From IMG/VR virus record IMGVR_UViG_3300003097_000006: DNA of 64,000 bases; one strand, given 5' to 3'. Below are positions 1 through 20,009 of the stretch, piece after piece (positions within the stretch are counted from its first letter, which is position 1; each line of letters starts with the position of its first letter). Below the pieces are notes generated by a model that had not been told where the DNA came from, did no database searches, and saw nothing but the letters and a program-made list of their open reading frames with translations. The position numbers and the translations under genes were made by a program. The stretch comes from a virus. Taxonomy: Duplodnaviria; Heunggongvirae; Uroviricota; Caudoviricetes.

Positions 1-293
1 CCGCCAGCATTTACACGGAAGTTCTGCATACCACGACGCAGAGAACCATACGTTGCGATGAAAGTTTTGCCCTCAGATGGGAAGATTACGTTTTTAACTA
101 CGTCAGTCATTTTCTTTTCCTGTTCAGGGATATAGTGTCGGAACTCGACAAAACGCCAAGTATTCATGTAGTGCAGTGCGAGACTTTTAGCCTCTTCGTA
201 CTGAAGGCCACTTCCAATTACGTGGCCATCTTCACCCTTGCCCATACGTCCAATGAGCATGAAACGGTATTTTGGGTCGTTAAGATTTCCCAT
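1..293 (-). CDS. gamma-glutamyl cyclotransferase (AIG2/GGCT)-like protein, partial; runs off the window start
   Basis: The minus-strand reading frame is open from the ATG at 291-293 to position 1. The translation ends ...KTFIATYGSLRRGMQNFRVNAGG, and YGSLRRG is the hallmark N-terminal motif of the AIG2/GGCT fold. An alternative internal start (MTDVV, ATG at 108-110) has an AGGAAAAG ribosome-binding site. Confidence 0.5.
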   Translation of the reverse strand, partial: MGNLNDPKYRFMLIGRMGKGEDGHVIGSGLQYEEAKSLALHYMNTWRFVEFRHYIPEQEKKMTDVVKNVIFPSEGKTFIATYGSLRRGMQNFRVNAG

Positions 294-468: not shown

Positions 469-823
469 TTTTACCCTCCGACCAGATTGGCGACAGAGAT
501 TTCAAGAATGAAAACACTTCTTTATCGCTCTTGAAACGTTTAATACCTTTGTGACGTTGAATACCTTCACCGACCATTTGAATGTACTCAAACGCATCAT
601 CAAATGAGAAGAATTCAAACTCTTCACCGCTGTAACGGTTCTTCGTTAAACGCCAAGACAGTGTTGCATCGTAGTCACAATCAATGACGTATTCTGCAAA
701 CCGAATAAGGTCACGGTAATACCGATGGGTTAGTTCATCGGCGGCCTCTTCAAAATCACAGAAGTCATATGGCTCCTCTTCCAAGAAAGCATATAACTTA
801 CCCTGAATTACCAGAATTGTCAT
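455..823 (-). CDS. hypothetical acidic protein (122 aa)
   Basis: Minus-strand ORF tightly packed against its neighbours. No recognisable motif. Confidence 0.5.
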   Translation of the reverse strand: MTILVIQGKLYAFLEEEPYDFCDFEEAADELTHRYYRDLIRFAEYVIDCDYDATLSWRLTKNRYSGEEFEFFSFDDAFEYIQMVGEGIQRHKGIKRFKSDKEVFSFLKSLSPIWSEGKSGSV

Positions 824-4275: not shown

Positions 4276-4595
4276 TAGAAAGGTATCTTGTCGTCAAAGC
4301 CAATCATAGACTGAGCAATACGCTCAATCTCCCTGTCACGCATCTGCTGACGGAAGCACATCTTGTCATATATTTCAATGACCTTTCGTACTTTATCATC
4401 AATGGTGATTTTAGGCTTCACATCGTCAATGAAATGAAGCCTTCGGAAAGGCATGACCAAGTACACAAACTTCGCAGCTTCGAGATTAGTGCGAAGGCAT
4501 ACTCGGTCACCATTGCTCAACTTATAATACACAGAGGTGCTCCAGAATTGTTGCGTCTGATGCCGCGACTGGAACCTCCCAGCCAACGATTTCAA
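4275..4595 (-). CDS. hypothetical protein (106 aa); start uncertain
   Basis: Minus-strand ORF overlapping the 3' end of the ATP-grasp gene by about 74 nt. An internal Met would remove the overlap. Confidence 0.4.
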   Translation of the reverse strand: MKSLAGRFQSRHQTQQFWSTSVYYKLSNGDRVCLRTNLEAAKFVYLVMPFRRLHFIDDVKPKITIDDKVRKVIEIYDKMCFRQQMRDREIERIAQSMIGFDDKIPF

Positions 4596-5781
4596 AGTGA
4601 GACATGCTTACGTCGTACTTACCAACAGTACGCTCACCGTCAACAGTGATTAAATAAACACCGTTGTTTTGGAGAGTTGGAGTGCTATTTGCCAACTGAA
4701 CAGCACGTTCGCCATTACGACGGCTCTGGTTGCTTTGGGTACGGTTTACAGGAGTTGCCCGTAAGTTTTGTGCAGAATCGCCGGACAGCGCAAAGTTTTC
4801 ATCAGCAGCAACTTCTTGTTCAGGAGCCGGTGCTGGCGCTGGGGCAGGTGCAGCTTCACGCTGTAAAGTCTGACGAACGGTACGTGTCTGAGCAGAAGGT
4901 GTGTTGTTCACTTCACGCTGAAGTTCGTCCAGAGAAGGGGCAGGCATCACCTCTTCAACTTCCTGGCCGTTCAGGAGACGCAGCACGTTTGATGCGAAGG
5001 TTGTCAGGTTAGTGCCTGTCATACCTGGAGCGGTATTTACTTCCAGAACCCATGCTTCATCACGACGAGTGATTACATCAACTGCACCGTAATCCAGACC
5101 CAGAGCCTGAATAGCTTTCAGCGCTTCACGCTTAGCCTCTTCATTAAGCTGAGCCATTTGGGTGGCATAAATCCAGCCGGTATGGTAGTTGCGAACTACG
5201 CCAGAATATTCCGGCATGTCAGCGTAACCATCACGACGCTTTTTCTGCTGAACGTAGGTGATTTTACCTTTCATGACGTGAATACGGAACTCACGACGGT
5301 CTGCGGTAATACCACGAGTGTACAACTGGGCGCTTACCGCTGATTCAGAAGTCTGGACACCACCGATGTTTCCCAGGCTGGAAGGGTCGCGGTGACAGGC
5401 AACGATGCCCTCGCCTGAATGGCCCTGGAGTCTTGTGCGGGCATAGACAAGTTCACCGCTGTCAACCCACTCTTGGGCGGTTGTGCGTGAAGTGGTGAAG
5501 TCGACAGTTTTGACTCCAGCATCTGCAAAAGTTCGGAAAGCGGTTGATTTATTGGAAGCGTTGCCAATGCGATGTCCTGGGTTGAGAACGGTAGCACGAC
5601 CGATTACGTGAGAAGGCATGTTGGAATCACCATAGTTAATGATGATATCACCAGCACGGCCTGTGAAATTGGAGTTGTTGCGACGAATTTTAATCAGGTT
5701 GTCACCCTGTGCAGCCACTTCAACTTTCAGTGCATTTACAGTGTCAGAAGCCGCGTGAGACCAGATTGCTAAACGTGCCAT
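4522..5781 (-). CDS. ATP-grasp family ligase (RimK-like) with PAPAPAPAPE linker and extra C-terminal domain
   Basis: The segment ...GAVDVITRRDEAWVLEVNTAPGMTG matches the ExN..PG C-terminal ATP-grasp motif, and the N-terminal half fits an ATP-grasp fold. A (PA)4 linker precedes an approximately 100-aa tail. It sits in a cluster with the GATase and amidoligases. Confidence 0.65.
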   Translation of the reverse strand: MARLAIWSHAASDTVNALKVEVAAQGDNLIKIRRNNSNFTGRAGDIIINYGDSNMPSHVIGRATVLNPGHRIGNASNKSTAFRTFADAGVKTVDFTTSRTTAQEWVDSGELVYARTRLQGHSGEGIVACHRDPSSLGNIGGVQTSESAVSAQLYTRGITADRREFRIHVMKGKITYVQQKKRRDGYADMPEYSGVVRNYHTGWIYATQMAQLNEEAKREALKAIQALGLDYGAVDVITRRDEAWVLEVNTAPGMTGTNLTTFASNVLRLLNGQEVEEVMPAPSLDELQREVNNTPSAQTRTVRQTLQREAAPAPAPAPAPEQEVAADENFALSGDSAQNLRATPVNRTQSNQSRRNGERAVQLANSTPTLQNNGVYLITVDGERTVGKYDVSMSHFEIVGWEVPVAASDATILEHLCVL

Positions 5782-5858
5782 TTTGTATTTACCTTTTCAT
5801 CTATTGGTTGGGAAGAATCTACATTATAAGAGGCTCCGAAGAACCTCTGAAATATAGA

Positions 5859-6110
5859 CTACGCCTCTTTCAAAGCAAGAAGACTTGCAACAATATCACG
5901 ATTCTTAGTTTTAAGACCCGCAATCTCGTCGTCTATAAGGCTGTAGTGATAGGTGAGCATCATCAGTGAAAGTTCGCCATTCGTATGGGAAATCATCTGA
6001 TTGACGTAATACAACTTCTCCTCAAGAAGCTCACCAATACGCTTAAGGTTGTCTTTGCAGAGAGCATCGCTCTCCGCTTTCAACTCCTTCATTACATCCT
6101 TATCGGACAT
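5859..6110 (-). CDS. hypothetical coiled-coil protein (83 aa)
   Basis: Minus-strand ORF. Confidence 0.5.
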   Translation of the reverse strand: MSDKDVMKELKAESDALCKDNLKRIGELLEEKLYYVNQMISHTNGELSLMMLTYHYSLIDDEIAGLKTKNRDIVASLLALKEA

Positions 6111-6340
6111 TAGACCTTAATACCTTTCAGTCGGCAATAATCGGCCAGCATCATGTGAATTGACACTGGATAAGGGATGGCCACTTTAACTCCCTTCTGT
6201 TCTTCGTGGAGACGGACTTGGTAGTCACGTACCGCTCGGAGCATATCTGAACCAAAGTCGGTCATTGGCACTTTACGTACTACAACCGGATTGTCCAGGC
6301 GGAGCATTTTAACTTCTTTCATTGAATTATCCATATTCAT
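6110..6340 (-). CDS. hypothetical protein (76 aa)
   Basis: Minus-strand ORF abutting its neighbours. Confidence 0.5.
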   Translation of the reverse strand: MNMDNSMKEVKMLRLDNPVVVRKVPMTDFGSDMLRAVRDYQVRLHEEQKGVKVAIPYPVSIHMMLADYCRLKGIKV

Positions 6341-6349
6341 CTTTACCTA

Positions 6350-8299
6350 TTACTTGTTGTGGCTTGGAACCATTCCCAGTTCCAATTTTTTAGCGCAGGT
6401 TTCACAGCAAGGTGTGCTACCTACGAATTCTGTCGTTGCTGCCTTTTTGAATGGAATTTTATCATGACACCAAGAGCAGGTGTTCATTTCATTCCACTGA
6501 GACAGCGTGACCTTCATCCCATTTTGAAGAGTTTTACGATACGTCAGAATTGGACGAACGTTGCCCTTCGGTTTGTTAGCGTATTTGTTTGCAAAGCACT
6601 GCAAACAGACACACTCTTTTTCTGACTCTGCATCAACTGGAAGTTCAGTCGAACATTCGATACACTCGAAGCGAAGTTCTCCCAGTTGAGGCTCCCCCTT
6701 TGATTGTGACTCCTTTGGTTCAAGGCCGTCAATAAGACCGGCATCTACGCAGGCGTCACAGTAGGCGAAGTCACGGAACACAGTGGCATCAGCCATGAAG
6801 TCGAAGGGGATTGGAGAGCCACAATTTCCGCAGGAATTTAAACAATCGTGTCTCTCCCACTCCTTTTTTGTATAGACGCTACCATCTCTGGTTACGTCCA
6901 TTTCGTTACCGTCTGATTCCTCTTCTTCCATTTCTGGGTCTTGAGGGACGTCAACGTCGTCAGGAGTGTGTGTCTGAGCAATCAGCGCAGTTCCACGAAC
7001 AGTTGATGCAATGATATGTTCCATTTCATCATCTTCATCAAAATCATCATCCAAAGGAATTGGAGTGACATTGACAGTTTCGTCACGAACATCGCTGACA
7101 ATCAGAGTCAGAATGTAGTTGGCTTCATAAGCCGAGATAACTTTACCAGAGTACAGTTGCTCACCGCCATAGATGTTTTTATCAACACCATGACCCTGAA
7201 CTTCGATGTACTCACCTTCACCAATCCAGCCGGTCAGTTGACCACGCTCAGGATTTTTCGGATATGGTTCGAACTGGAATGCTTCGAACTTAATACGGTC
7301 ACCGATTACAGCATCAACGCCGTGGCTCTGAAGCATCTCATTTAACTGATGATGCTTTTCGAGCGTGGCTCTCATTTCTGATGTTTGATGAGTGTTGCTA
7401 GAAACGCGGTTTGGATAGCTGTTAGCCCCTCGATTATTGTGGGGCCAGCGGCTGTCGTAGTCGTCGTAGTCGTCGTCATACGAGTTATAGCCGCCCGAAT
7501 TCCAGTTGCGATAGTTGTAAGAATAGGTGGAGCGAAAGGTTGGAAGCTCATGCTTCACCTCCTCCCTAAACTTCAGCCCATCGGCGGTATCAAAGATATA
7601 CTGAACACCAACTTCGAGTTCAAACTCTTTTTCAATCGTCGGATTGAACTTCCGGCGAGACATAATCCATTTAATCATGTCTTTTTCGGAAGCACCATAC
7701 CAGTCACCGGTATTGGTTTTCATCATGTAGAAAGGACGCTCATCGTTTCGGATGAAATTCAGAGTGTTCTCTTTAGCATCATGCCAAACCAGAACGAACG
7801 CACCATGCAATTTCTTGATGGTTTCAGCGATACCGATTGTAGCAATCGAATAGCAGACATTTTCACTGTCTACTTCGAAACGCTTGTGGTCTGGTAACAA
7901 AGACTGGTCAACCAGTGAACCATTGTGAACCAGGGTGATATGCTCATGTTGGAAAGGGTGAGCGTTTTTGTCGTTAACCGCACCGGCAGTTGCATAACGG
8001 TTGTGACCAACCATGAACTTCGGATTGATTGAAGACGTCGTTGTTGCCTTCGTAACAGGGTTAACATTTTTGGTTTTGTGTTCTTTAACATCATCCCAGA
8101 TTTGGGAACGAACAAACATGTCACCTGGGATTGCTTTCTTTGCAATCTTAATGAAAGCTTGTTCATTATACGGCTTGTAATAAGCCATGACGCCAGTTGA
8201 GTGTTCACCACGGAAAGTGTCAGCAAACAACATGTTTTCAAAACGTTCGATATTAGCCGACGAAAGTGTCACGCCGCCCACAAATACGATTCCACACAT
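6350..8299 (-). CDS. class-II (Ntn) glutamine amidotransferase fused to a C-terminal array of CxxC zinc ribbons
   Basis: The protein starts MCGIVFVGG with a Cys2 nucleophile and carries GHNRYATAG, both characteristic of GATase class II (GlmS/AsnB/PurF-like). A Tyr/Asp/Asn-rich low-complexity linker follows. The C-terminus has at least 5 CxxC pairs (CGNCG, CDAC, CIEC, CLQC, CSWC, CETC). Confidence 0.7.
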   Translation of the reverse strand: MCGIVFVGGVTLSSANIERFENMLFADTFRGEHSTGVMAYYKPYNEQAFIKIAKKAIPGDMFVRSQIWDDVKEHKTKNVNPVTKATTTSSINPKFMVGHNRYATAGAVNDKNAHPFQHEHITLVHNGSLVDQSLLPDHKRFEVDSENVCYSIATIGIAETIKKLHGAFVLVWHDAKENTLNFIRNDERPFYMMKTNTGDWYGASEKDMIKWIMSRRKFNPTIEKEFELEVGVQYIFDTADGLKFREEVKHELPTFRSTYSYNYRNWNSGGYNSYDDDYDDYDSRWPHNNRGANSYPNRVSSNTHQTSEMRATLEKHHQLNEMLQSHGVDAVIGDRIKFEAFQFEPYPKNPERGQLTGWIGEGEYIEVQGHGVDKNIYGGEQLYSGKVISAYEANYILTLIVSDVRDETVNVTPIPLDDDFDEDDEMEHIIASTVRGTALIAQTHTPDDVDVPQDPEMEEEESDGNEMDVTRDGSVYTKKEWERHDCLNSCGNCGSPIPFDFMADATVFRDFAYCDACVDAGLIDGLEPKESQSKGEPQLGELRFECIECSTELPVDAESEKECVCLQCFANKYANKPKGNVRPILTYRKTLQNGMKVTLSQWNEMNTCSWCHDKIPFKKAATTEFVGSTPCCETCAKKLELGMVPSHNK

Positions 8300-8366
8300 G
8301 GGAAAGTTTCCTCTTGAAACATTTAAAGAAGGGGCTTTATGCCCCTATGATGGACGATAGTTCGTC

Positions 8367-10070
8367 TCAGAAGTTGGCTGTATCTTCGTCGTCTTCTTCG
8401 TCGTAACCTTCGTACTCTTCATCATCGTCTTCAAAAGAAGCACGACGTGGGGCCGGTTGAGGTACACTGCGGGAAGAGTAGAACTCACGATAGAGTTGAC
8501 GATGTTGATTCGGCAACTGACGAGGCACGAACCAGTCAGAGTCGAAGGTAATGCCGCGTTCACGACATTTCTCTTGCAACTCAGCCAACCATTCGAATGT
8601 AATTACATCCGGTGCTGAATCTGGGAACAACCACATACCGTCAGTATGTCGGCGCAATTCACGCTGAAGATGGTTGATATATGGGCTTTCAACCGTCACA
8701 CGCATTCTGCGAGATGTATCATCGGTTTCGTTACGAACGTTGTGAACGTAAACATTACGACGACGACACTTAGCCAGAGAAACCACATCGTGAGCCAGCT
8801 TATAACCAATCTCCATGTCTTGCTCAAAGTCCGGTAAGACTTTAGGCAGACCTTTGCGAATCGCTTGGTGAAGCGGAATCGTCATGAGATATTCGATGAA
8901 CGATGAATCATCGCCTTCGAAGTTCATTGCTAACTCTTTCAGCGAGAGGAAGCGGTTGACCAGGCGAATCAAACGACCTTTACGCCACTTCGCTTCACTG
9001 ATGCGGAACTCGATGGAACCGAAGCTCTGCATTGGAAGCAAGTTCAAGGACGTGTACTTGTCCCAGTTTGAAGCGATGCTACGCATGAAGTTCTGGTCGT
9101 CTTGTTCCCACGCACGAGCCAGAATAGCCAACTGGTCTTGGGCAAAGCCCAAAGCAACACAGAAGTTATTCTTGTAACGATGCCACCCTGAACATTTGAA
9201 CAGGATACGCTCGTAAACAATGTACGCCAGAATCATTCGCTTCAACTGAGGAGCAGTCATGTTACGAACGTCTACGTGGACATGAGTTGAACAACGCCAA
9301 GACTCATCCGGAGAGTTCGTGAACAAGAAGCTGTCGATTTCAATCGCAGCATTGTACAGGTCGCGTCCACCCCACGGAGATGAGCAGACAAATTCCATTC
9401 CGGAATTACGCAGAGAACCATCTGACTTAGCTTCCCAATACTGGAAGTTAGGGGGGTTGGAGGTCATGTTCTCCAATTCAATCTCAACCCCAGCGAGATT
9501 CTGACCCACAATCAGTGGGTGACTCTCAATTGTCGGATACGACGCTCGTTGTCCAAAAACCTGAGCAACAGTAACCATATTATTATCAACCTCTACGTTA
9601 CCAGATATGAAGTTTTCCTGATTAACACTTCCAAAGCTTCCGTTGCCTTGGCGAGGGTGGTCCTCATCAGACCAGTGGTAGACACCACTAACAGCACCAG
9701 GTGCATCATCAACCGGTTCTGTGTGAGCTGCTTGGAAGGGGTCAGAAGTTAGACTACCAGAACCCCCTCCAAAGGCGTGTGCAAATTGGGCATATCGACT
9801 GATTCCACCATTAGTACGTGAACGTGATGATACAGACTGAACTGTACGTTGACCGGATTCAGCTTCTGCTCTTGCACGTTCTTGACGTTCTCGGATTCGA
9901 GCTAAATCTCTGTCCCACATTGCCTGCCACTCATTTACCGCCCTTGTGGCATCTTCTGTTGGTGGAGCAGGTGGTGGAGCAGAAGCCTCACGGGCCTCTG
10001 CTTCTAAACGATTCCGGTCATTTTCAGACCGGATATGAGCCATTAACTCGTCGAAACTACGGTTTGGCAT
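8367..10070 (-). CDS. glutamine-synthetase-fold amidoligase (Amidoligase_2-like) with low-complexity N-terminus and acidic C-terminal tail
   Basis: Motifs VEIELENM, SGMEFVCSSP, THVHVDV and GSIEFRISEAKWRKGR give the Glu/Glu, HxH and ExR constellation of GS-like/GCS2 amidoligases. The protein is 567 aa. Confidence 0.6.
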   Translation of the reverse strand: MPNRSFDELMAHIRSENDRNRLEAEAREASAPPPAPPTEDATRAVNEWQAMWDRDLARIRERQERARAEAESGQRTVQSVSSRSRTNGGISRYAQFAHAFGGGSGSLTSDPFQAAHTEPVDDAPGAVSGVYHWSDEDHPRQGNGSFGSVNQENFISGNVEVDNNMVTVAQVFGQRASYPTIESHPLIVGQNLAGVEIELENMTSNPPNFQYWEAKSDGSLRNSGMEFVCSSPWGGRDLYNAAIEIDSFLFTNSPDESWRCSTHVHVDVRNMTAPQLKRMILAYIVYERILFKCSGWHRYKNNFCVALGFAQDQLAILARAWEQDDQNFMRSIASNWDKYTSLNLLPMQSFGSIEFRISEAKWRKGRLIRLVNRFLSLKELAMNFEGDDSSFIEYLMTIPLHQAIRKGLPKVLPDFEQDMEIGYKLAHDVVSLAKCRRRNVYVHNVRNETDDTSRRMRVTVESPYINHLQRELRRHTDGMWLFPDSAPDVITFEWLAELQEKCRERGITFDSDWFVPRQLPNQHRQLYREFYSSRSVPQPAPRRASFEDDDEEYEGYDEEDDEDTANF

Positions 10071-10648
10071 TCTGGGTACTCCTGACTCACTGAACGAAGC
10101 AAATGAGCCGCCTCTGGGAACAGCTCAATGCCTTCCCCGACGAACTTACCGATGTACACGTCTTTATAACGCAAATCATCATCAGTTTTGAGGAAGACGT
10201 TGCCAGACACTTCAGGATACTTGTGCTCACTAAAGAACTCAGCGATTGTATCCCAATCGAACACTGGCATTCCGCAAACACGGCGACTTGTCAGACCTTT
10301 CTTGGTCGAACGATTCGCACGATACGAAACCCAATAATAACGATTACGCCACTTAATGTAGCGAGAGTCTGGAAGTTCCAGAACCAACTTCTCGTCAGTG
10401 TGAGGAACTGAACGGTTTTCGTAATTACCGTTCGGATAACGAACTGTTCCGTGGAACACCAGAGCATCCAGTGCATCATCAGAGAAACCTAAAGTCTCAC
10501 GGTCAGATGCACTCATTGCTCGCAGGTTCATCACATTGTTATCGTGAGTTACCGCTTCAATTTGAAACGGCAACAAACCATGTTCAGGGTCACGATAACC
10601 GACGTAAGTCGAACAGTAATACATTCCGAAATCGTCGGATAAAGCCAT
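10043..10648 (-). CDS. hypothetical protein (201 aa) located between the two amidoligase paralogs
   Basis: Minus-strand ORF with no recognisable motif. Its position suggests it belongs to the ligase cluster. Confidence 0.55.
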   Translation of the reverse strand: MALSDDFGMYYCSTYVGYRDPEHGLLPFQIEAVTHDNNVMNLRAMSASDRETLGFSDDALDALVFHGTVRYPNGNYENRSVPHTDEKLVLELPDSRYIKWRNRYYWVSYRANRSTKKGLTSRRVCGMPVFDWDTIAEFFSEHKYPEVSGNVFLKTDDDLRYKDVYIGKFVGEGIELFPEAAHLLRSVSQEYPECQTVVSTS

Positions 10649-10658
10649 CTTGTGCTCC

Positions 10659-11462
10659 TTAGCAGATGTTCAACATACGGATGAACTGTTCCGCCATGTG
10701 TTTGTCGTTGTTGTTGATTGCCTTCTGAATATCTTCAGGGTTAACAATCGACACCATCTCCATGTAATCACCCTGAGACATGTCGAACGCTTTATGAGCC
10801 TGTTCCCAAGCCCAGCGACGATTATCGTCATTGGCAATCCAGAAGTTAGACAGAACACGATATTCAATACCGTACTCTTTGAAACGGCAAGCACCCGCTT
10901 TGCCATACAGCTCTTTACGACGGTCGTCGCCGTCCAGAAGAAGTGCAGGCAGACCCAGATAGTAATCACACATTACACCCATAACCTTCTGAAGTTCAGA
11001 GGTTACAGGAACCACACCGCTTACGCCAATGTGAATGTGACCACCTGCTGTACGGAGGCCTGGGTCAGCAGCAGCCGGTTTAGGGTTACGCATACCGGTC
11101 AGAGCATTGTAATCCGGCTCACAACCGAATACGAATGCATCTTTGTGGAATGATAATAACTCTTCCGGCGTGAAGATGTGAGAACTCACACCGAGAATAA
11201 CTTCGTGACCAACTTCTGCAACAGCCTCTTGACATAAGTCAATGCCGCGCTTAATGTTGTCATTGAAGCCGTCAAAATCACCATGCGGGTTGGTATCAAA
11301 CTCAACCAGCACGTTATCTTCCTGAATACGAATGTCGTCCGTGACTACCTTTTTGTTGTACTTGTCCGCTCCCAGCAGACCTGCAACTGAACTGATAAGG
11401 TTGCTGCTCACATTACGGGTGAACAGTTCAGGGTCAGTTGCCAACAAAATGACTTTAGACAT
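10659..11462 (-). CDS. second glutamine-synthetase-fold amidoligase paralog (267 aa)
   Basis: VLVEFDTNPHGDFDG, GGHIHIG and EYGIEYRVL reproduce the E-x-E, HxH and E-x-R pattern of GS-like amidoligases. Confidence 0.55.
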   Translation of the reverse strand: MSKVILLATDPELFTRNVSSNLISSVAGLLGADKYNKKVVTDDIRIQEDNVLVEFDTNPHGDFDGFNDNIKRGIDLCQEAVAEVGHEVILGVSSHIFTPEELLSFHKDAFVFGCEPDYNALTGMRNPKPAAADPGLRTAGGHIHIGVSGVVPVTSELQKVMGVMCDYYLGLPALLLDGDDRRKELYGKAGACRFKEYGIEYRVLSNFWIANDDNRRWAWEQAHKAFDMSQGDYMEMVSIVNPEDIQKAINNNDKHMAEQFIRMLNIC

Positions 11463-11476
11463 TTCTATATCCTTAA

Positions 11477-12550
11477 TTAAAGACGTGGTGGAATGTTGTT
11501 ATCGGTACAGAATTGAGCAAGACGCTCAATAAGAAGCTCAGCCTTCTCATCGCTTAAGCTCTCCTGTAGATATGTGATATCATCTAAGAAAAACTTAAAC
11601 CCAAGAACACTGTTCCATTGTTGAATTTCTTCATCAATGGGAACATCCCCCGGAATACTGAACACGTCAATCATGTGCCAATATTTACGAGGACACATTG
11701 GTACTCGGTCTTCACGACCCCAGTTTTGAAGCTCAGCAGCAACATCACGGCTCTTTGTCGTGAAGTTCCAAAGGAACCCTTCATAACGTTCGTCGAACCA
11801 GATTTCGTTTCTGCGGAACCATTCTTCGCGGAAGTAGCCTTTAGACTCACTCCACTTGTGCTGCTTCCACCGGAAAGCTTCCAGATTCTGACCCATAAGG
11901 TTCAGGAACCCTTGACGACCCAGTGTATCAGGACTACACCAGTTATACTCACCGGTTTGTGTGTTCTGAATTACAGCTTTAGGAGCACGACCGAAAGTAC
12001 CTGGCATCACATCAATGTAAACCATGTGCGCCACAACAGCCGCGAAACGAGGACGATAACCTTTGTTCAGTAACCAACGATAACCCATTGCGAAGTTACC
12101 GTATTGAGCCAAGTTACGGAAAAGGTAGAGAGCCAACATGATTTGGTCGGCAGTGTGGTCTTTGATATGCACACGAATGCCGCCGATGAGGGGGTGGACA
12201 GTCACAAGACCTGCCAACATTGGCAAGTCTTCAACCAAATCCTTCATCATGTTCAGAAAGTTACGGTTTGCGGTTTTACGAGCATCGGTTCGAGATACGT
12301 CGCTAGGCCAGTCACGAGTCGAGTAATCAGACTGGTCGTAGCACCAAATTGGATGAATCCCATGAAGAGAGTCATACAAAATGAATGCATGGTCAGAGCC
12401 ATCACGGTCTAACAGACTGTGTACGTTGCTTCCAGAGAAGCTGAACGGTCTCTGCTCATGCCAACGGGCGTTTCCCATAACCCCGAAGCAAATGGATTCG
12501 TTTGAAAAACGGTTCCCATCCTTGAAAACCACACTGTAACGTACTGACAT
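11477..12550 (-). CDS. hypothetical protein (357 aa)
   Basis: Minus-strand ORF, Trp-rich, no recognisable motif. Confidence 0.55.
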   Translation of the reverse strand: MSVRYSVVFKDGNRFSNESICFGVMGNARWHEQRPFSFSGSNVHSLLDRDGSDHAFILYDSLHGIHPIWCYDQSDYSTRDWPSDVSRTDARKTANRNFLNMMKDLVEDLPMLAGLVTVHPLIGGIRVHIKDHTADQIMLALYLFRNLAQYGNFAMGYRWLLNKGYRPRFAAVVAHMVYIDVMPGTFGRAPKAVIQNTQTGEYNWCSPDTLGRQGFLNLMGQNLEAFRWKQHKWSESKGYFREEWFRRNEIWFDERYEGFLWNFTTKSRDVAAELQNWGREDRVPMCPRKYWHMIDVFSIPGDVPIDEEIQQWNSVLGFKFFLDDITYLQESLSDEKAELLIERLAQFCTDNNIPPRL

Positions 12551-12551
12551 T

Positions 12552-13463
12552 TTATTCCCCTTTATTATCTTTCAGTACTTTCTCCCACACCGCCTGAGCA
12601 AGCTTCAGGAATTCACTTTCAACAAAGCGATGATGGTTTCCAAAACTGTTGTTGATAGTCAACAGTTCAGTTTTATCCCAATCTTCCGGGATGTTTTCCA
12701 GAGACGTTAACATCGTTGTATCAGTCAGAGTACAACGACGACCGGTACGTGGGTTAACTGGAGCAGAACCATCCCCGTAGTTACCATAACGACCGTAACC
12801 CTGCTCTGTATCACCGAACACGCCTTGATAGATTTTACCTAATCCACCTTCCATCATGTTGATGAGGTCAGCAACGGTTACTTCGTCACCGAATACACAT
12901 TCATCTCCACCCTGACCTTGCCAGAACGAGTATTCGGATGAACCGAAGCTCTTATTGCACTGATAGGTCATTGCCATGACGAACGAGAATGGAACATCGA
13001 AACCGGCAGTACGCAGAATCATGTACGAGTTCCCGAATGAGCTGTACTCAATCAGGTTACGCAGCATCATTGCGCCCATCACAGTAGTCTGCATGTTTTG
13101 GTCAGCCAGTGGAATATAAATATCACCGGTATCAAAACCGCCAAGTTCCAGACCTGGATAACTCTCATCTTCATCCAGAATCTTAAACCCACTGAAATAC
13201 TGAGGGAATGCTGCCAGAATTTCTGGAAGCTCCTGATTAATCAGCTGAGTTCCATCGCACCCAGATGGGCCAGGTGACCAAACCATATGGCTCAATTCAC
13301 CAGATGAGAAACCACTGAGAGGACCGGCTACATACTCGTCCTCTTCGTCATCCCATTGTTCGTTATCTTCATCCCACTGTTCGATGTAGGATAAAAATCC
13401 AAAGCAAGGTTTTGAAAACTCTTCACTTGCACCTCGCTTATTAAACACCGTAGCCATTACCAT
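12552..13463 (-). CDS. hypothetical protein (303 aa), acidic N-terminus
   Basis: Minus-strand ORF, Gly/Tyr-rich, no recognisable motif. Confidence 0.55.
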   Translation of the reverse strand: MVMATVFNKRGASEEFSKPCFGFLSYIEQWDEDNEQWDDEEDEYVAGPLSGFSSGELSHMVWSPGPSGCDGTQLINQELPEILAAFPQYFSGFKILDEDESYPGLELGGFDTGDIYIPLADQNMQTTVMGAMMLRNLIEYSSFGNSYMILRTAGFDVPFSFVMAMTYQCNKSFGSSEYSFWQGQGGDECVFGDEVTVADLINMMEGGLGKIYQGVFGDTEQGYGRYGNYGDGSAPVNPRTGRRCTLTDTTMLTSLENIPEDWDKTELLTINNSFGNHHRFVESEFLKLAQAVWEKVLKDNKGE

Positions 13464-14483: not shown

Positions 14484-14972
14484 CTATTCTCTTAAGAAGT
14501 AATGGTTACCGTACTTGTAAGCACGTTTACCTTTAGCCCAATAGGGTCTGTCGCTCCCACTGTAGAAGTGAACAAACTTGTACTTGGGAATGTAACCGGG
14601 CTTCATTACTTTGTACGCAACTTGAGCAGCTTGGAAATACGCATGACGTTCCTTGTCACCAAACTTTCGTTCAGCGAACAGCTTCTCTTGATAACGTATC
14701 AAACCATTGAAGTCTTTGGATTTAAGGCGTTTAGTCCAGTTAAACTGGTTGGACTGTAGAACAACTTTGCAAACGTCATTCGGGTACTTTTCGTTATGAA
14801 CACGAGTTATCACTGTATCAGCGACAATCTCCATGCCCTTAGTACCTTCGCCTCCGGCCTCCGTGTAAATGTTAAGGGTGAGTGCTAACCAGCACACTAA
14901 AAAGCTCATCGGGGATTGACTCTCCTTATAGCCGCCATTGAGTTTAAAAAAGGACTCTGTTTCCAGAGCCAA
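14484..14972 (-). CDS. cell-wall hydrolase (SleB/Hydrolase_2-like); candidate endolysin with N-terminal hydrophobic (possible signal-anchor-release) segment
   Basis: TEAGGEGTKGMEIVADTVITRVHNEKYPNDVCKVVLQSNQFNWT matches the conserved block of the SleB family (EAxGE...NRV...VVxQxxQFS). The N-terminus MSFLVCWLALTLNIYT is hydrophobic. Confidence 0.6.
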   Translation of the reverse strand: MALETESFFKLNGGYKESQSPMSFLVCWLALTLNIYTEAGGEGTKGMEIVADTVITRVHNEKYPNDVCKVVLQSNQFNWTKRLKSKDFNGLIRYQEKLFAERKFGDKERHAYFQAAQVAYKVMKPGYIPKYKFVHFYSGSDRPYWAKGKRAYKYGNHYFLRE

Positions 14973-16895: not shown

Positions 16896-17117
16896 TCACC
16901 CCTCCTTAGAAACACTTCCAGAAAATTTAACCTTGAAGTATTTCTTCAAATGCTCCACAGACATATACGCCAGCACAACATCAATGCCAGCACCCAGCAC
17001 TGATGCGTTGCGTACATCGTAGATAAACAGGAAGAACAGAATAACTAAAAACACCATATGTGCATACGGTGTATTCAGAAAGTCTGCAACCTTATTCAGC
17101 TTTGACTTAAAGCTCAA
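16896..17117 (-). CDS. small membrane protein (73 aa)
   Basis: Hydrophobic segment HMVFLVILFFLFIY. Its start overlaps the NAMPT stop. Confidence 0.45.
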   Translation of the reverse strand: MSFKSKLNKVADFLNTPYAHMVFLVILFFLFIYDVRNASVLGAGIDVVLAYMSVEHLKKYFKVKFSGSVSKEG

Positions 17118-18784
17118 AACAGCCCCTTAGCTACGGCTTCTTTCACCGTGCGGTCAACGTATGATTCGATACGTGCCAGCACTTCATCACCGCTTTCAGT
17201 GAAGATTTCACCGTTGCGGTAGATAGTTACCAGCGCAGTGTCTGCTTCTTCTTCAACAGTAGCCTGGTCTTTGAAAGTCCAGTTACCGTTTTCATCGACG
17301 AAGTGAGCCATCAAGCCTTTAGCAGACTTTTTGGTGCCATCGTCAGTTGCAGGGTCTTTGAAGATTTCGCGGGCTTCACCATTAACGATGCCCCACGTCG
17401 CTTTCATAGCCCAGCCCAGCGTGTCACGAGTGACATACTGATAGGTGAACGAGCCGATACCCAGCACAACGTTGCTAGAGGCAAAGCCCTTAGCTTTGAG
17501 ACGCTGGAAGATTTCGAGCTGACGTTCCAGAGAGATTGAATCGCCGTAAATCAGGCCGATTTGAGGAGCGAGGACTTTGTAGCCTTTGGAGTTGATTTCA
17601 CCACCAAAAGTATCCCACAGAATCTGAATCGCACCTTTCACTTCCGCTTCTGACTTTTTAGTCACGCAGAAGTAACCGCCGTTGAAGTACGCATAGGTGA
17701 AGTATTCATCACCAATCTGTACAACATACGAACCATTTTCCGGCAGGTCGTTAGCATCATCCAGCATCCACTGACGTGCAATGTTCTCGTCTTTGAAACG
17801 AGCCACAACAGTGAATCCACAGATAATGTCTTCCGGAACACCGGAATCAGGACGAACAACCAGCTTACCATCACGTTCCATGATGATATCTTTGATGCTC
17901 GGCAGGGTGATTGTCAGAACATCCCAGAAGTTCCAGGTGTCAGACACGACCGACAGAATACCGGTAGTGTAGACTTCGGTCAGAAGACGAATGAACGTCT
18001 GGCGCTCATCATCTTTACCACCCATGCACATTACTGAATGCTCAGTAGCATTTACAGAGCCACCACGACCAGCTTCGGTCGGATAATGCTCATTGAAACG
18101 CTCACGGGCAAACACAGAGTCTGTCCCGTTGTAAGCCATCATATGACCAATACCGGTCAGACTGTTAGCCCACATGCCCATGCTCCCACGAGCAGCAAAG
18201 TCATGACCCTGCCACTGAACGTGGTCGTTGTTGTCGCAGGTCAGCTCAGCGAAGTATTCGCTCATCAGACGGAAGCTGAGTGCAGTCGTTGCAGAGGTAG
18301 CAACAGGCCACAGTTCAGCGCTCATCAACGTTTCCAAATAGTTCGGAATCCAGTAGAAATCGTCGATGGTGTTGATGATGGTAATCGGAGGACATTTAAC
18401 TTCCACCACATTACCTTCCGGCACTGCTTTAACGTGAATCGGCAGGTAGCCGAGTTTGTGCAGTTCATAGAACGGCTTCACGTCATAGTCGGTGTACAAA
18501 TAACTGTTAACCGATGCACGGAATTTCTCAACCACTTCTTCAGCGGGTTGGTTAAAGAAGTTGGTCTGAAACTCGTCGACCAGCCACTGAAGCATGAAGG
18601 TCTGAGCACCAACCCAAAGGATTGGAGAACCAGCTTCACCACGGAGGGCTTTGAAGAACGGAGATTTCAGATACTTGTTCGCACGAGGCGTAAAGTTACT
18701 GTACACGCGAGTAGTACCTTCTGGGTACTGAGCGCGGTGACCGAGTTTATAGCCGTCAATCGCAAAGATAGGACTAATTTTCAT
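17114..18784 (-). CDS. nadV: nicotinamide phosphoribosyltransferase (NAMPT/NadV-like)
   Basis: The N-terminus ...SPIFAIDGYKLGHRAQYPEGTTRVYSNFTPR matches the conserved NAMPT N-terminal block (DSYK..H...YP). Size is about 556 aa. The start is trimmed to Met15, giving a TAATG overlap with the Prs stop. Confidence 0.8.
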   Translation of the reverse strand: MKISPIFAIDGYKLGHRAQYPEGTTRVYSNFTPRANKYLKSPFFKALRGEAGSPILWVGAQTFMLQWLVDEFQTNFFNQPAEEVVEKFRASVNSYLYTDYDVKPFYELHKLGYLPIHVKAVPEGNVVEVKCPPITIINTIDDFYWIPNYLETLMSAELWPVATSATTALSFRLMSEYFAELTCDNNDHVQWQGHDFAARGSMGMWANSLTGIGHMMAYNGTDSVFARERFNEHYPTEAGRGGSVNATEHSVMCMGGKDDERQTFIRLLTEVYTTGILSVVSDTWNFWDVLTITLPSIKDIIMERDGKLVVRPDSGVPEDIICGFTVVARFKDENIARQWMLDDANDLPENGSYVVQIGDEYFTYAYFNGGYFCVTKKSEAEVKGAIQILWDTFGGEINSKGYKVLAPQIGLIYGDSISLERQLEIFQRLKAKGFASSNVVLGIGSFTYQYVTRDTLGWAMKATWGIVNGEAREIFKDPATDDGTKKSAKGLMAHFVDENGNWTFKDQATVEEEADTALVTIYRNGEIFTESGDEVLARIESYVDRTVKEAVAKGLF

Positions 18785-19674
18785 TAGACACCTGAGTAGT
18801 TGAGTGTACGAGCCAAATGTCCGCAATCATAGATGCGAACCTGCGGGTTGTCTTCGTGAGGTTTCTCACAGAAGGACACTGAGTTTGTAGTGTAGATTTT
18901 ATCCACACCACGACTGAGCAGGTGGTCGTAACCTTTACTAAAGATTCCGTGAGTTACCACCAGTTCGACTGTCTTAGCCCCAGCCTTTTTCAGGGCTTCG
19001 GCAGCACCGATGAAGGTCATACCACCGTCGCAAATATCATCGAAGATAACGCAACGACGGCCTTCAAGAGAAGACAGTGAACAGTCAACGATACGCATAC
19101 CGACAATATTGCCAGTCGCCACGTCACGCTCTTTATCCAGAACAACCAAGCCGATACTCGGCACGACCTTCTGAATACCATGAATTTTCTTCAGAGCACC
19201 GGCATCAGGAGAAACGATTACAATATCGTCACCCTGGGTTAAGCCATAGTGAAGAGGGTTGATTTGAAGCAAACGAGCCTGAGGAATGTTGAACACATTG
19301 TCAATCAAACCTGGGCCAACATCAGAGTGAGCATCAAACACGATGATTGAATCGAGTTCAAGTGCATTTAACTGCTTAGCGAACACTTTAAGAGTGAACG
19401 CATCGTTCTGAACCATGCGACGGTCTTGACGTGCATATGGCAGATACGGCATGAACAGGCAGATACGCATACGCGGATTGATGAATCGCAGAATATCTAC
19501 CACGCAAGCAACTTCAAAGAATTGATGTTGCGGGTCAGTGTCAGCCGTAACACTGATTGTAGCGCTTTCACATTGACGAGGCAGAACCCCTAACAACTGA
19601 ACACGCAAAGCACCGTCACTGAAACGTCCAGATTCGATGGATACATCGAGCGAATTAACCTTAAGATTAATCAT
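18784..19674 (-). CDS. prs: ribose-phosphate pyrophosphokinase (PRPP synthetase)
   Basis: PYLPYARQDRR, FDAHSD and VIFDDICDGGMT are the classic Prs motifs. The start is trimmed to MINLKV (ATG 19672-19674) with an AGAGG ribosome-binding site. Confidence 0.8.
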   Translation of the reverse strand: MINLKVNSLDVSIESGRFSDGALRVQLLGVLPRQCESATISVTADTDPQHQFFEVACVVDILRFINPRMRICLFMPYLPYARQDRRMVQNDAFTLKVFAKQLNALELDSIIVFDAHSDVGPGLIDNVFNIPQARLLQINPLHYGLTQGDDIVIVSPDAGALKKIHGIQKVVPSIGLVVLDKERDVATGNIVGMRIVDCSLSSLEGRRCVIFDDICDGGMTFIGAAEALKKAGAKTVELVVTHGIFSKGYDHLLSRGVDKIYTTNSVSFCEKPHEDNPQVRIYDCGHLARTLNYSGV

Positions 19675-20009
19675 ATTGCCTCTGTATGAAGGGTGGTAAC
19701 CACACTGCCAGCCTGGCCTAAAAACACGGGAACAGAAAATCCACATAAAAGGTTTTACCCAGGATTTTAAGAGCCTTACAAACTATCGTTTGATGGTCGC
19801 CGTCTGGGCAACCAATGAGGCTTATTCAACTAACTTTTAATTGAGCGCCATGCCCATACTGAGTGTTAACAGCTGAGTCTTAAGTTTTAACCCGGTGCGG
19901 TTTTACGGCTGCCCGGTTAGCCCCTAGGTTTCAATTAGCAGTTGAATGCCACTATCGCTGTGGCTTGCGTTCTGTTTTAGTTTTAACAGCAGGTGATTAC
20001 CGATTTTGT

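Follow-up and report, generated by a model that had tools for sequence, protein, structure and literature searches.

Class-II glutamine amidotransferases such as GlmS, PurF, and AsnB place a cysteine nucleophile directly after Met1 on an alpha-beta-beta-alpha Ntn fold and carry a fused synthase or acceptor domain; those characterised so far deliver ammonia through a sealed channel. EgtC is a stand-alone Ntn domain of ~230 aa that shares a pathway with a GCS2/GS-type ligase and acts after EgtA. In phages, a module of amidoligase, ATP-grasp, GAT-II, and GGCT enzymes was reportedly predicted in 2009 by Iyer, Abhiman, Burroughs, and Aravind. Passages in two later papers (PMC10580990; PMC11945000) relay the prediction of Iyer et al. 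2009 together with a cell-wall reading of it. The module of the phiEco32 type includes ligases of Pfam families PF12224 and PF14395, and mass spectrometry identified the amidotransferase, ATP-grasp, and YtfP proteins of SU10, a phiEco32-like phage, as early products (PMC4281155). A literature search returned no biochemical data for any member of the amidotransferase family, only genome papers restating the 2009 prediction.

The window is a 64,000-nucleotide stretch of a Caudoviricetes virus (IMG/VR record IMGVR_UViG_3300003097_000006), and it contains a real phage gene of this family. Its features are listed in Table 1. The ORF starts with ATG and holds MCGIVF, GHNRYATAG, and YSYNYRNWNSGGYNSYDDDYDDYDSRW, which are all the strings quoted in an initial annotation of this DNA. 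No other start codon lies between the upstream stop and the Met of MCGIV, and a GAGGA ribosome-binding site precedes this Met by 9 nt. The region shares ~96% DNA identity with Salmonella phage 7-11, and the protein is 98% identical to its 7-11 counterpart (tblastn), which is annotated there as 'glutamine amidotransferase'. Judged by sequence, it is a homolog of phage 7-11 AEK82017 and phiEco32 gp83. There were 602 homologs at E<=1e-3, and phrog_4736 spans residues 1-571. Conservation was read from an alignment of 61 sequences reaching down to 36% identity. AlphaFold (AF2) modelled confident domains strung on linkers of low confidence, and pTM was low (0.51 and 0.42). The initial annotation had described a head, a linker, and a Cys array, all of which were recovered; it had overlooked the barrel (306-406) and the acidic linker (407-465) and did not mention the strand.

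Table 1. Features of the amidotransferase gene and its neighbours in the window
Feature	Coordinates	Strand	Description
Whole amidotransferase gene	6350..8299	minus	649-aa class-II amidotransferase / barrel / three-zinc-finger protein
Class-II (Ntn, Cys-nucleophile) glutamine amidotransferase fold, residues 1-257	7529..8299	minus	Pfam, AF2, Foldseek
Disordered Tyr/Trp/Asp/Asn/Ser-rich linker, residues 258-305	7385..7528	minus	pLDDT <50
Helix and five-stranded beta barrel, residues 306-406	7082..7384	minus	pLDDT 88-97
Disordered acidic linker, residues 407-465	6905..7081	minus	pLDDT <50 over 428-461
Putative zinc finger 1, 'W-Zn', residues 466-521	6737..6904	minus	G..T...W...C490xxC493...IPF...C514xxC517; acidic
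Putative zinc finger 2, short LIM-like, residues 541-572	6584..6679	minus	F.C546xxC549...C565xxC568
Putative zinc finger 3, terminal 'W-Zn', residues 587-640	6380..6541	minus	NG..VT...W..MN.C608xxC611...IPF..A...C632xxC635; basic
Amidoligase_2 (GS/GCS2-type carboxylate-amine ligase), 567 aa	8367..10070	minus	upstream neighbour; Pfam PF12224, E 1e-4
phi32_85-like protein, 201 aa	10043..10648	minus	phrog_4877; conserved in module
COOH-NH2 ligase type 2 ('phage phiEco32-like'), 267 aa	10659..11462	minus	Pfam PF14395, E 1e-9; phrog_3815, E 1e-108
DUF7195 small protein, 76 aa	6110..6340	minus	directly downstream of amidotransferase gene; Pfam PF23825, E 4e-36
RimK-family ATP-grasp ligase, 419 aa	4522..5781	minus	Pfam RimK E 3e-7; phrog_2599 E 2e-159
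YtfP/AIG2-type gamma-glutamyl(amine) cyclotransferase-like gene, 5' part	1..293	minus	cut by window edge

The head of the protein has the hallmarks of a class-II enzyme. It was modelled with pLDDT mostly >90 as a four-layer alpha-beta-beta-alpha Ntn fold, and Foldseek matched it to GlmS, PurF, AsnB/ASNS, and EgtC (E 5e-12 to 1e-7), with the GlmS glutaminase domain 1xff at E 5e-12 and a TM of 0.71 (normalised to target). Cys occupied position 2 in all 50 aligned homologs that reach the N-terminus, and the ORF has no earlier start codon, so this residue would come first once the initiator Met is removed. The glutamine-binding and oxyanion residues R101, N126, G127, and D144, equivalents of GlmS Arg73, Asn98, Gly99, and Asp123 (alignment to GlmS residues 65-106), were present in 61/61 sequences. 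The proposal that the N-terminal ~250 aa are a Cys2-nucleophile GATase was thus borne out. Pfam matches (GATase_6/7/4; GATase_6 E 5e-15) were confined to residues 71-209, none was significant past residue 209, and no catalytic domain was detected past residue ~257, in agreement with the earlier statement that no synthetase domain follows. Unlike GlmS, PurF, and AsnB, the protein therefore has neither a fused acceptor nor a visible ammonia-channel partner in cis, and a barrel and fingers are found instead; candidate acceptor enzymes are separate genes in the window. By sequence, the Pfam, NCBIfam, and PDB matches of the head were GlmS, PurF, or AsnB, and its NCBIfam scores were all far under the equivalog cut-offs. 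As a separate observation that speaks against ammonia supply, EgtC-type gamma-glutamyl amidohydrolases, which act without usable ammonia release, share this fold and these conserved residues to the same degree.

The head is followed by two disordered linkers with a barrel between them. The Tyr/Asp/Asn-rich low-complexity stretch noticed earlier corresponds to the first linker. Across the 61 homologs its composition is kept while its sequence is not conserved: aromatics make up 17% compared to 10% protein-wide, S/N/Q/G/T make up 46%, and 'YDDDY'-type repeats recur. In the barrel, DSSP assigned a helix (306-325) and strands at 335-345, 352-358, 365-373, 382-393, and 396-406; G357 is invariant, and F338, Y346, G353, E366, and H370 are kept in 90% or more of the sequences. 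The barrel had no Pfam match and its profile found no PDB sequence relative, so that 'OB-like' describes the strand order of the model only, no search having assigned it to the OB fold. It is acidic (pI 5.0). The second linker has a net charge of -19, with D/E averaging 29% across homologs, and contains TPIPLDDDFDEDDE, a degenerate form of the DDDIPF-type motif of its relatives. No Pfam or PHROG entry covers the barrel and finger region.

Of the 17 Cys in the protein, 15 lie within the last 165 residues. They include six CxxC pairs, starting at residues 490, 514, 546, 565, 608, and 632, which form three units with internal spacings of 24, 19, and 24 residues. Paired CxxC motifs stood at matching positions in nearly all of the 120 homologs listed, and on these alignments the array is far beyond chance. 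C490, C493, C514, and C517 are invariant and the remaining eight ligand Cys were present in 54-60 of 61 sequences, the misses being mostly gaps; the 12 Cys are thus invariant or nearly so down to 36% identity. In finger 1 (pLDDT >90; mean charge -6.4) each of the four Cys, like W481, is either invariant or kept in at least 90% of the sequences. The Cys of finger 2 (pLDDT 80-90) were found in 59-60/61 sequences, and those of finger 3 (pLDDT 90-97) in 54-55/61, the rest being gaps. A comparison with hhalign aligned finger 1 with finger 3 at a probability of 98.8% (E 4e-17) and found no homology of finger 2 to either. Fingers 1 and 3 are, by this profile evidence, duplicates of a 52-residue unit.

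The initial annotation had proposed at least five CxxC pairs in a zinc-ribbon array. The conserved array of Cys pairs and the suggestion of zinc binding stand; the pairs number six, and the fold is a different one. In all three modelled fingers a helix starts at the second CxxC, and the best structural matches were LIM, FYVE, GATA, L24e, FCS, RING, and ZZ, with no classical zinc ribbon among them. Because of the helix position and these matches, the fingers were assigned to the treble-clef type. Two conserved CxxC pairs per unit, modelled with pLDDT 80-97, would make up a generic four-Cys site, and all three four-Cys fingers model as treble-clef and putatively zinc-binding. A zinc ribbon, with two beta-hairpin knuckles, a three-stranded sheet, and no ligand-bearing helix, was not what the models gave; absence of such geometry was the ground on which the initial annotation had said its reading should be dropped, and taken to the letter that ground applies. 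The fingers resemble LIM domains and other treble-clef fingers (FYVE, GATA, FCS/TRASH, L24e, ZZ, RING), and a profile match to a PINCH LIM domain (E 2e-5) spans finger 2. LIM membership, which calls for two contiguous fingers (C2HC + C2C2/C2CH/C2CD) with a two-residue spacer and a score at the Pfam LIM threshold, was rejected, as was an FCS/MYM/TRASH-type finger, for which no Pfam zf-FCS match exceeded the threshold. An Fe-S reading was discarded, with Fer4_11 insignificant (E 0.15) and a spacing unlike that of an Fe-S cluster, as was an HNH nuclease reading of the Cys array.

The W-Zn unit belongs almost only to this phage amidotransferase family. A search of 1.84 billion representative proteins gave 81 matches to the 52-residue unit, and all those checked were amidotransferase fusions or fragments of such. 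Stand-alone W-Zn proteins were rejected, since the short matches were contig-end fragments or split gene calls; one of them, P0135, overlaps a truncated upstream ORF with another W-Zn unit and is followed by DUF7195. No further copies were found in the window. The terminal unit is present in the phiEco32, PaP3, TC6, and VpJYP1 proteins, is kept even in the shortest family members, and is positively charged in 33 of 38 systems. Here fingers 1 and 2 are acidic (pI ~4.2) and only the terminal finger is basic, which disfavours nucleic-acid binding across the whole array; the charges would fit protein-protein docking better. The earlier suggestion that the array may be a protein- or nucleic-acid-binding module is plausible.

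Acidic aromatic motifs recur in this system. The amidoligase in the window has an acidic C-terminal tail ending in Phe, DDDEEYEGYDEEDDEDTANF; among 120 amidoligase homologs, 42 had an acidic tail, and 32 of the 42 ended in W or F. An internal 'DFDDDIPFD'-type motif, identical to the C-terminal tip of SSB (SSB-Ct sequence: PMC5872125), was found in the amidotransferase linker of 46/120 relatives where 1.5 were expected. The window protein itself contains only IPLDDDFDEDDE, which does not match the DDDIPF pattern. Many relatives resemble bacterial SSB (OB fold, disordered linker, acidic DDDIPF tip) in having a barrel, a low-complexity linker, and this motif. However, the motif is internal, it is degenerate in the window protein, and no sequence similarity to SSB was detected for the barrel, so the likeness is one of resemblance only and carries no claim of membership. 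The charge of the terminal finger did not co-vary with the acidic amidoligase tail (p = 0.19). The linker motif and the amidoligase tail were complementary, a suggestive but weak association (Fisher p = 0.04, with phylogeny ignored) for which the two genes were paired by the length of their contigs.

The initial annotation had also suggested that the amidotransferase domain is not tethered to a classical synthase partner. None is fused to it; nevertheless, its neighbours in every lineage examined include genes for two GS-type amidoligases and an ATP-grasp ligase. In the window, Amidoligase_2, the COOH-NH2 ligase type 2, the ATP-grasp ligase, and the GAT-II gene lie on one strand between 4522 and 11462, in the same order as in phiEco32 and PaP3, and the same four-enzyme set is found in phiEco32, PaP3, TC6, and VpJYP1. 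In these four and in 7-11 the amidotransferase gene is always beside the two amidoligases and the RimK-like ligase, usually with a gamma-glutamyl cyclotransferase, and in 3/5 lineages the amidoligase gene is directly upstream of it. The 7-11 lineage differs from the phiEco32 type in having a duplicated terminal finger and an added LIM-like finger. The Amidoligase_2 gene matched phrog_7469 'amidoligase' (E 6e-90), and one homolog is annotated 'gamma-glutamylcysteine ligase-like'. The ATP-grasp ligase has a Pro/Ala-rich linker and a small C-terminal domain, and matched the NCBIfam MptN / rimK_fam alpha-L-glutamate ligase models (E ~2e-11) under their curated cut-offs. The cyclotransferase-like translation ends in TFIATYGSLRRGMQNFRVNAG, matches the phiEco32 YtfP start ATYGSLRRGQANY, and carries a YGSLRRG motif; the gene is annotated in 7-11 ('similar to phiEco32 conserved YtfP/UPF0131'), phiEco32, and PaP3. 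A phi32_85-like gene lies between the two ligase genes in phiEco32, PaP3, TC6, and VpJYP1; its product had no Pfam match and 13 homologs only, and a 17-sequence profile of these and the four phage counterparts found no PDB relative. DUF7195 holds the same position in phiEco32, PaP3, and one metagenomic contig, and was not detected at the TC6 or VpJYP1 loci. PADLOC defence-system models matched no cluster protein.

The protein is most likely an ammonia-supplying or gamma-glutamyl-hydrolysing subunit whose C-terminal half serves as a docking device. Our main reading, to which we give a probability of roughly 40%, is that it is the Ntn subunit of a conserved early phage enzyme module, supplying ammonia in trans and docking through its C-terminal half. 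Removal of Met1 would make Cys2 the N-terminal nucleophile, which would hydrolyse the gamma-amide of glutamine, or a gamma-glutamyl group, held by R101, N126/G127, and D144. The freed ammonia could then serve in trans the adjacent ATP-dependent ligase or ligases, which would amidate a peptide-like substrate at a carboxylate. The other 390 residues are probably non-catalytic, the two linkers carrying the barrel and three treble-clef fingers as docking modules that may hold the hydrolase near its partner enzymes or target, in place of the synthase domain that is covalently fused in the classical class-II enzymes. At the conserved core of this device would be the basic terminal finger, which may bind acidic, aromatic-ended tails or motifs, for example the C-terminus of the neighbouring amidoligase. 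Flexible tethering of this kind does not itself create the sealed channel of the characterised enzymes.

A possible but doubtful explanation is that the Ntn domain acts like EgtC and removes or trims a gamma-glutamyl group added by the GS/GCS2-type ligases, with no ammonia supply. In this scheme it would operate together with the gamma-glutamyl cyclotransferase, and the choice of a macromolecular substrate would fall to the barrel and fingers. Foldseek matched EgtC structures strongly (E ~3e-8; target-normalised TM ~0.68), the family core is likewise an Ntn domain without a fused synthase, the amidoligase family is GCS2-like, and the module holds a second enzyme of gamma-glutamyl-amide chemistry in YtfP/GGCT. 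However, GlmS, PurF, and AsnB outrank EgtC by sequence, and the EgtC NCBIfam model gave a marginal match (E 2e-3; 17 bits where the cut-off is 219). The window protein is multi-domain, unlike EgtC, and ergothioneine genes are absent here. The residues conserved in the family do not separate the two activities, and there is no evident reason for a phage to add and remove one group.

Modification of cell-wall precursors seems rather unlikely as the explanation in its own right. Here the three ligases would furnish the stem peptides of peptidoglycan with unusual peptide or amide linkages, as a block to superinfection or in preparation for lysis; the amidotransferase would supply ammonia, and the fingers would be structural or serve oligomerisation only. 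This is the only published reading, as conveyed in the passages that relay Iyer et al. 2009 (PMC10580990; PMC11945000), and it is entirely predictive. The early expression of the module genes is consistent with it, glutamate- and glutamine-centred enzymes suit D-Glu/mDAP chemistry, and the Gram-negative stem peptide has three free carboxylates, to which the three ligases may correspond. On the other hand, Pfam and NCBIfam scans matched no module protein to a Mur-ligase or peptidoglycan-enzyme family, and the family-specific, multiplied fingers, the barrel, and the SSB-tip-like motifs are left unexplained. A cell-wall target is compatible with ammonia supply and docking and does not exclude them.

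It is quite improbable that the OB-like barrel and the fingers direct the enzyme to nucleic acid (DNA or RNA) or to the replication machinery, so that the module would modify nucleobases or replication proteins instead of cell-wall peptides. The combination of an OB-like strand order with zinc fingers, the basic terminal finger, the SSB-tip motif in relatives, and the acidic W- or F-ended amidoligase tails point in this direction, and the module adjoins primase/helicase and DNA polymerase genes in 7-11, phiEco32, PaP3, and TC6. In some viral contigs, amidoligase and amidotransferase genes are also found together with genes for thymidine hypermodification (PMC8989533). However, the barrel and fingers 1 and 2 are acidic, the window protein has a degenerate motif only, and the 7-11 annotation lists ThyX and a dCTP deaminase and no known hypermodification enzymes. 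Known SSB-Ct binding, moreover, uses a free C-terminus, whereas the motif here is internal. Apart from these points, SSB-tip-like 'DDDIPF' occurs in many relatives and acidic W/F-ended amidoligase tails in the window lineage. That the barrel, fingers, and acidic aromatic motifs form a targeting device linking the ligase module to the replication machinery or to the SSB interactome of the host, to modify DNA or replication proteins covalently or act in SSB-type condensates and not on the cell wall, as has been supposed since 2009, we regard as very doubtful.

The module was found in at least 321 sequenced phage records, including Kuravirus, Bruynoghevirus, and marine Zobellviridae phages. Bruynoghevirus phages have been isolated and characterised as phage-therapy candidates (PMC11945000). 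The module is expressed early, and every statement about it in the literature goes back to one 2009 prediction. What was annotated as 'glutamine amidotransferase' or 'GlmS-like' can now be turned into testable questions on what the fingers bind, based on three results: the amidotransferase always has a barrel and a family-specific finger, the latter in duplicate here, on disordered linkers; the terminal finger is basic; and acidic aromatic tails or motifs recur. If the partner of the fingers is a ligase, the system would represent a class-II amidotransferase that tethering assembles in trans. If it is the replisome or the SSB network, the presumed cell-wall role of the module would need revision.

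A single ORF with an ATG start (649 aa) was found at 6350..8299 (-), and all the protein strings quoted in the initial annotation are present in its translation. No start codon lies between the upstream stop and the Met of 'MCGIV', which has a GAGGA ribosome-binding site 9 nt upstream. The surrounding region (4500-10100) shows 96.3% DNA identity to Salmonella phage 7-11 (Moazamivirus, Grimontviridae) and to its relatives SeKF_80 and SE131, and the gene matches 7-11 AEK82017, annotated as 'glutamine amidotransferase'; therefore, the sequence was already public. Only amidotransferase models from Pfam matched the protein, all within residues 71-209, and no significant Pfam match was obtained when the later parts were scanned separately. 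The domain division was derived from a 61-sequence alignment (down to 36% identity) and an AlphaFold2 model (mean pLDDT 82).

Domains of the amidotransferase and features of its neighborhood
Feature	Position	Strand	Remarks
Head, class-II amidotransferase fold	residues 1-257		pLDDT mostly >90
Linker 1, disordered	residues 258-305		pLDDT <50
Barrel: long helix and five strands, short helix between strands 3 and 4, OB-like order	residues 306-406		pLDDT 88-97
Linker 2, acidic, disordered	residues 407-465		net charge -19
Three small cysteine modules (fingers 1, 2 and 3), short low-confidence linkers between	residues 466-521, 541-572, 587-640		pLDDT 80-97
Degenerate acidic motif 'IPLDDDFDEDDE'	7040-7081		aa 407-420 region
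YtfP/AIG2-type gamma-glutamyl cyclotransferase-like gene	1-293	(-)	cut by window edge
RimK-family ATP-grasp ligase	4522-5781	(-)
83-aa ORF	5859-6110	(-)
DUF7195	6110-6340	(-)	76 aa
Amidotransferase	6350-8299	(-)
Hairpin GGGGC-ATAAA-GCCCC, then TTCTTTAAAT	8321-8345	(-)	between amidoligase stop and amidotransferase start
Amidoligase_2	8367-10070	(-)
Amidoligase C-terminal tail	8367-8430	(-)	'DDDEEYEGYDEEDDEDTANF'; '...EEDDEDTANF'
phi32_85-like protein	10043-10648	(-)
'Phage phiEco32-like COOH-NH2 ligase type 2'	10659-11462	(-)
Two more conserved proteins of unknown function	11477-13463	(-)	357 aa (11477-12550), 303 aa (12552-13463)
Putative endolysin (7-11 annotation)	14484-14972	(-)	162 aa
570-aa and 320-aa ORFs	17114-19746	(-)

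The head matched the GlmS glutaminase domain in Foldseek (E 5e-12; TM 0.71 to 1xff, normalized to the target), with further matches to PurF, asparagine synthetase, and the stand-alone hydrolase EgtC. Cys2 was found in every one of the 50 homologs with a gene call extending to the N-terminus, and R101, N126, G127, and D144, the equivalents of GlmS Arg73, Asn98, Gly99, and Asp123, were invariant in the 61-sequence alignment. Thus, from its fold matches and conserved residues, the head is a predicted competent Ntn amidohydrolase acting on glutamine or a gamma-glutamyl group. Pfam, fold, and invariant residues agree with the Cys-nucleophile glutamine amidotransferase originally proposed.

The low-complexity stretch noted after the head was confirmed as linker 1, which is disordered in the model. 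Among the 61 homologs, its composition is conserved and its sequence is not: aromatic residues make up 17% compared to 10% protein-wide, S/N/Q/G/T make up 46%, and repeats of the 'YDDDY' type are recurrent. In the same set, Asp+Glu content averages 29% in linker 2. Some homologs have large insertions in this acidic linker and, in homolog P0037 (769 aa), a ~190-residue segment of it looks like a second helix-plus-barrel copy.

The protein contains 17 Cys, 15 of them within the last 165 residues. The initial annotation had counted at least five CxxC pairs; the array is real, but there are six pairs (starts 490, 514, 546, 565, 608, and 632), grouped into three units (spacings 24, 19, and 24 residues). 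Conservation of the pairs in homologs had been set beforehand as a test, and the result was clear: C490, C493, C514, and C517 are invariant and each of the remaining eight ligand Cys occurs in 54-60 of the 61 sequences, with misses mostly due to gaps. The extra Cys at 486, 563, and 631 were without conservation in this alignment. When residues 462-649 were modeled separately, the pLDDT was 88 but the pTM was 0.42; therefore, the modules are individually well defined and not packed together. The zinc-ribbon geometry first suggested was not seen, as the second CxxC of each module lies at the N-terminus of a helix in both models. Foldseek returned no match to the cysteine modules at E<=1e-3 (the insignificant top matches were LIM, RING, and ZZ), while a profile search of PDB sequences returned a PINCH LIM domain (E 2e-5); a classical zinc ribbon was absent from both match lists. 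The modules are best described, on the models, as three four-Cys treble-clef fingers, for which we infer zinc binding. A ~52-residue unit, G..T...W..n.C..C...IPF..A....C..C (the W-Zn unit), is duplicated as fingers 1 and 3 (profile-profile probability 98.8%, E 4e-17); in this comparison, finger 2 is shorter and of another kind. Membership tests for the zinc ribbon, LIM, and FCS families all failed. The fingers are a family-specific treble-clef variant without a Pfam model.

Among 1.84 billion representative proteins, only 81 matched a profile of the W-Zn unit at E<=1e-3. Every match examined contained an amidotransferase domain or was a fragment of such a protein, and no further copies were found elsewhere in the window; therefore, the unit is a family hallmark rather than a generic module. 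For the window protein, 602 homologs were found at E<=1e-3, and tblastn matched 321 phage records, mostly Pseudomonas, Escherichia, Vibrio, and Aeromonas phages, with the alignment covering the head alone or head and barrel in distant lineages. Direct inspection of the sequences revealed a common plan of head, aromatic linker, barrel, acidic linker, and terminal finger. phiEco32 gp83 (676 aa) has two detectable W-Zn units and PaP3 orf45 (517 aa) has one; the proteins of Vibrio phage VpJYP1 (450 aa) and Pseudomonas phage TC6 (437 aa) follow the same plan with a terminal finger. The shortest members (395-460 aa) keep one terminal W-Zn unit, and the maximum in others is three units and 11 CxxC pairs. 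The ancestral protein therefore had one terminal finger only, and its duplication and the insertion of the LIM-like finger 2 took place in the 7-11 lineage.

All the neighbors listed for the module are on the same strand as the amidotransferase gene, and together they are the known phiEco32-type amidoligase module. Gene set and order are the same in phiEco32 and PaP3, whereas TC6 and VpJYP1 have the same set in permuted order. According to later papers, Iyer et al. (2009) predicted that the phage module modifies cell-wall peptides and blocks superinfection (as cited in PMC10580990, PMC11945000, PMC11318856). The only experimental work on the module found in the literature was proteomics of the phiEco32-like phage SU10, where the amidotransferase, ATP-grasp, and YtfP proteins were detected as early products (PMC4281155).

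Several other features of the locus were observed. DUF7195 is the next gene after the amidotransferase in 7-11, phiEco32, PaP3, and one metagenomic contig and was not found at the TC6 and VpJYP1 loci; its strand-then-helix pattern could, as a guess, be ribbon-helix-helix-like. The 357-aa and 303-aa proteins are encoded upstream of the ligase genes, the position also held by their counterparts in phiEco32 (gp87/88) and PaP3 (orf49/50). They are apparently distant paralogs (BLASTP E 0.018 over ~60 residues) and had no Pfam or NCBIfam match. In the ATP-grasp ligase, a low-complexity linker of ~90 residues (including APAPAPAPAP) is accompanied by a small C-terminal domain, and the amidoligase has a ~165-residue N-terminal extension; with the amidotransferase linkers, disordered tethers and additional terminal segments are therefore common to all three large module enzymes of this lineage. 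The hairpin preceding the amidotransferase gene looks like a weak terminator or attenuator and has no annotation in 7-11. In transcriptional order, the putative endolysin (Pfam Hydrolase_2 cell-wall hydrolase domain, E 2e-15) precedes the first module gene (12552-13463) by ~1 kb, a proximity of possible relevance to the cell-wall hypothesis. The 570-aa and 320-aa ORFs, nicotinamide phosphoribosyltransferase and ribose-phosphate pyrophosphokinase by 7-11 annotation, form a predicted phage NAD-salvage pair.

In the best-supported reading, the Ntn head would act in trans with the adjacent ATP-dependent ligases. As a first choice, it would supply ammonia for amidating a carboxylate. Compared to class-II amidotransferases, the head has every testable feature except a fused acceptor domain, and the barrel and fingers on flexible linkers may form a docking device in place of the fused synthase domain of the classical enzymes. 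Alternatively, the head may hydrolyze a gamma-glutamyl amide as EgtC does; the fold and residue data fit an ammonia-donating glutaminase and such a hydrolase alike.

In the in-trans reading, the charge of the docking parts bears on what they may bind. Fingers 1 and 2 (mean charge -6.4 and -3.5) and the barrel (pI 5.0) are all acidic. A basic terminal finger was found in 80% of aligned sequences and 33 of 38 paired systems. This distribution argues against array-wide nucleic-acid binding and would leave the terminal finger available to an acidic ligand.

In bacterial SSB, the C-terminal tip is DDDIPF (PMC5872125), and many family members have a motif of this sequence internally. '[FL][DN]DD[IVA]PF[D]' occurs in the acidic linker of 46 of 120 members, while shuffles predict 1.5 ± 1.3; phiEco32 gp83 (L002:6001-8031) has 'DFDDDIPFD' around aa 405. 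The window protein and the 7-11 clade have only a degenerate motif. The C-terminus of the partner amidoligase is a strongly acidic tail whose last residue is Phe, and such tails were found in 42 of 120 amidoligase homologs, 32 of these ending in W or F. T7 replication proteins also have acidic aromatic-ended tails, and the amidoligase tail resembles these and those of SSB. Among 38 systems paired by contig, 14 had the linker motif only, 10 the tail only, two both, and 12 neither; motif and tail thus rarely co-occur (Fisher p = 0.04, uncorrected for phylogeny). These sequence patterns suggest a functional role in the system for an acidic aromatic peptide, with the basic terminal finger as one candidate receptor. 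No significant co-variation was seen between the charge of the terminal finger and the presence of an acidic amidoligase tail (p = 0.19). The acidic aromatic motifs and tails and the basic terminal finger also keep alive a replisome- or DNA-directed role of the module, as does its position next to primase/helicase and DNA polymerase genes in 7-11, phiEco32, PaP3, and TC6. Against such a role, the 7-11 genome annotation has ThyX and dCTP deaminase and no known hypermodification enzymes.

The gene sequence was already available and the module prediction is an old one. This analysis adds the resolved architecture of a barrel, a duplicated specific finger, and a LIM-like finger, its universality in the family, the near-exclusive association of the finger with the amidotransferase, and the acidic-motif lead. 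The interest would be greater if the docking partner proved to be the replication or SSB machinery.
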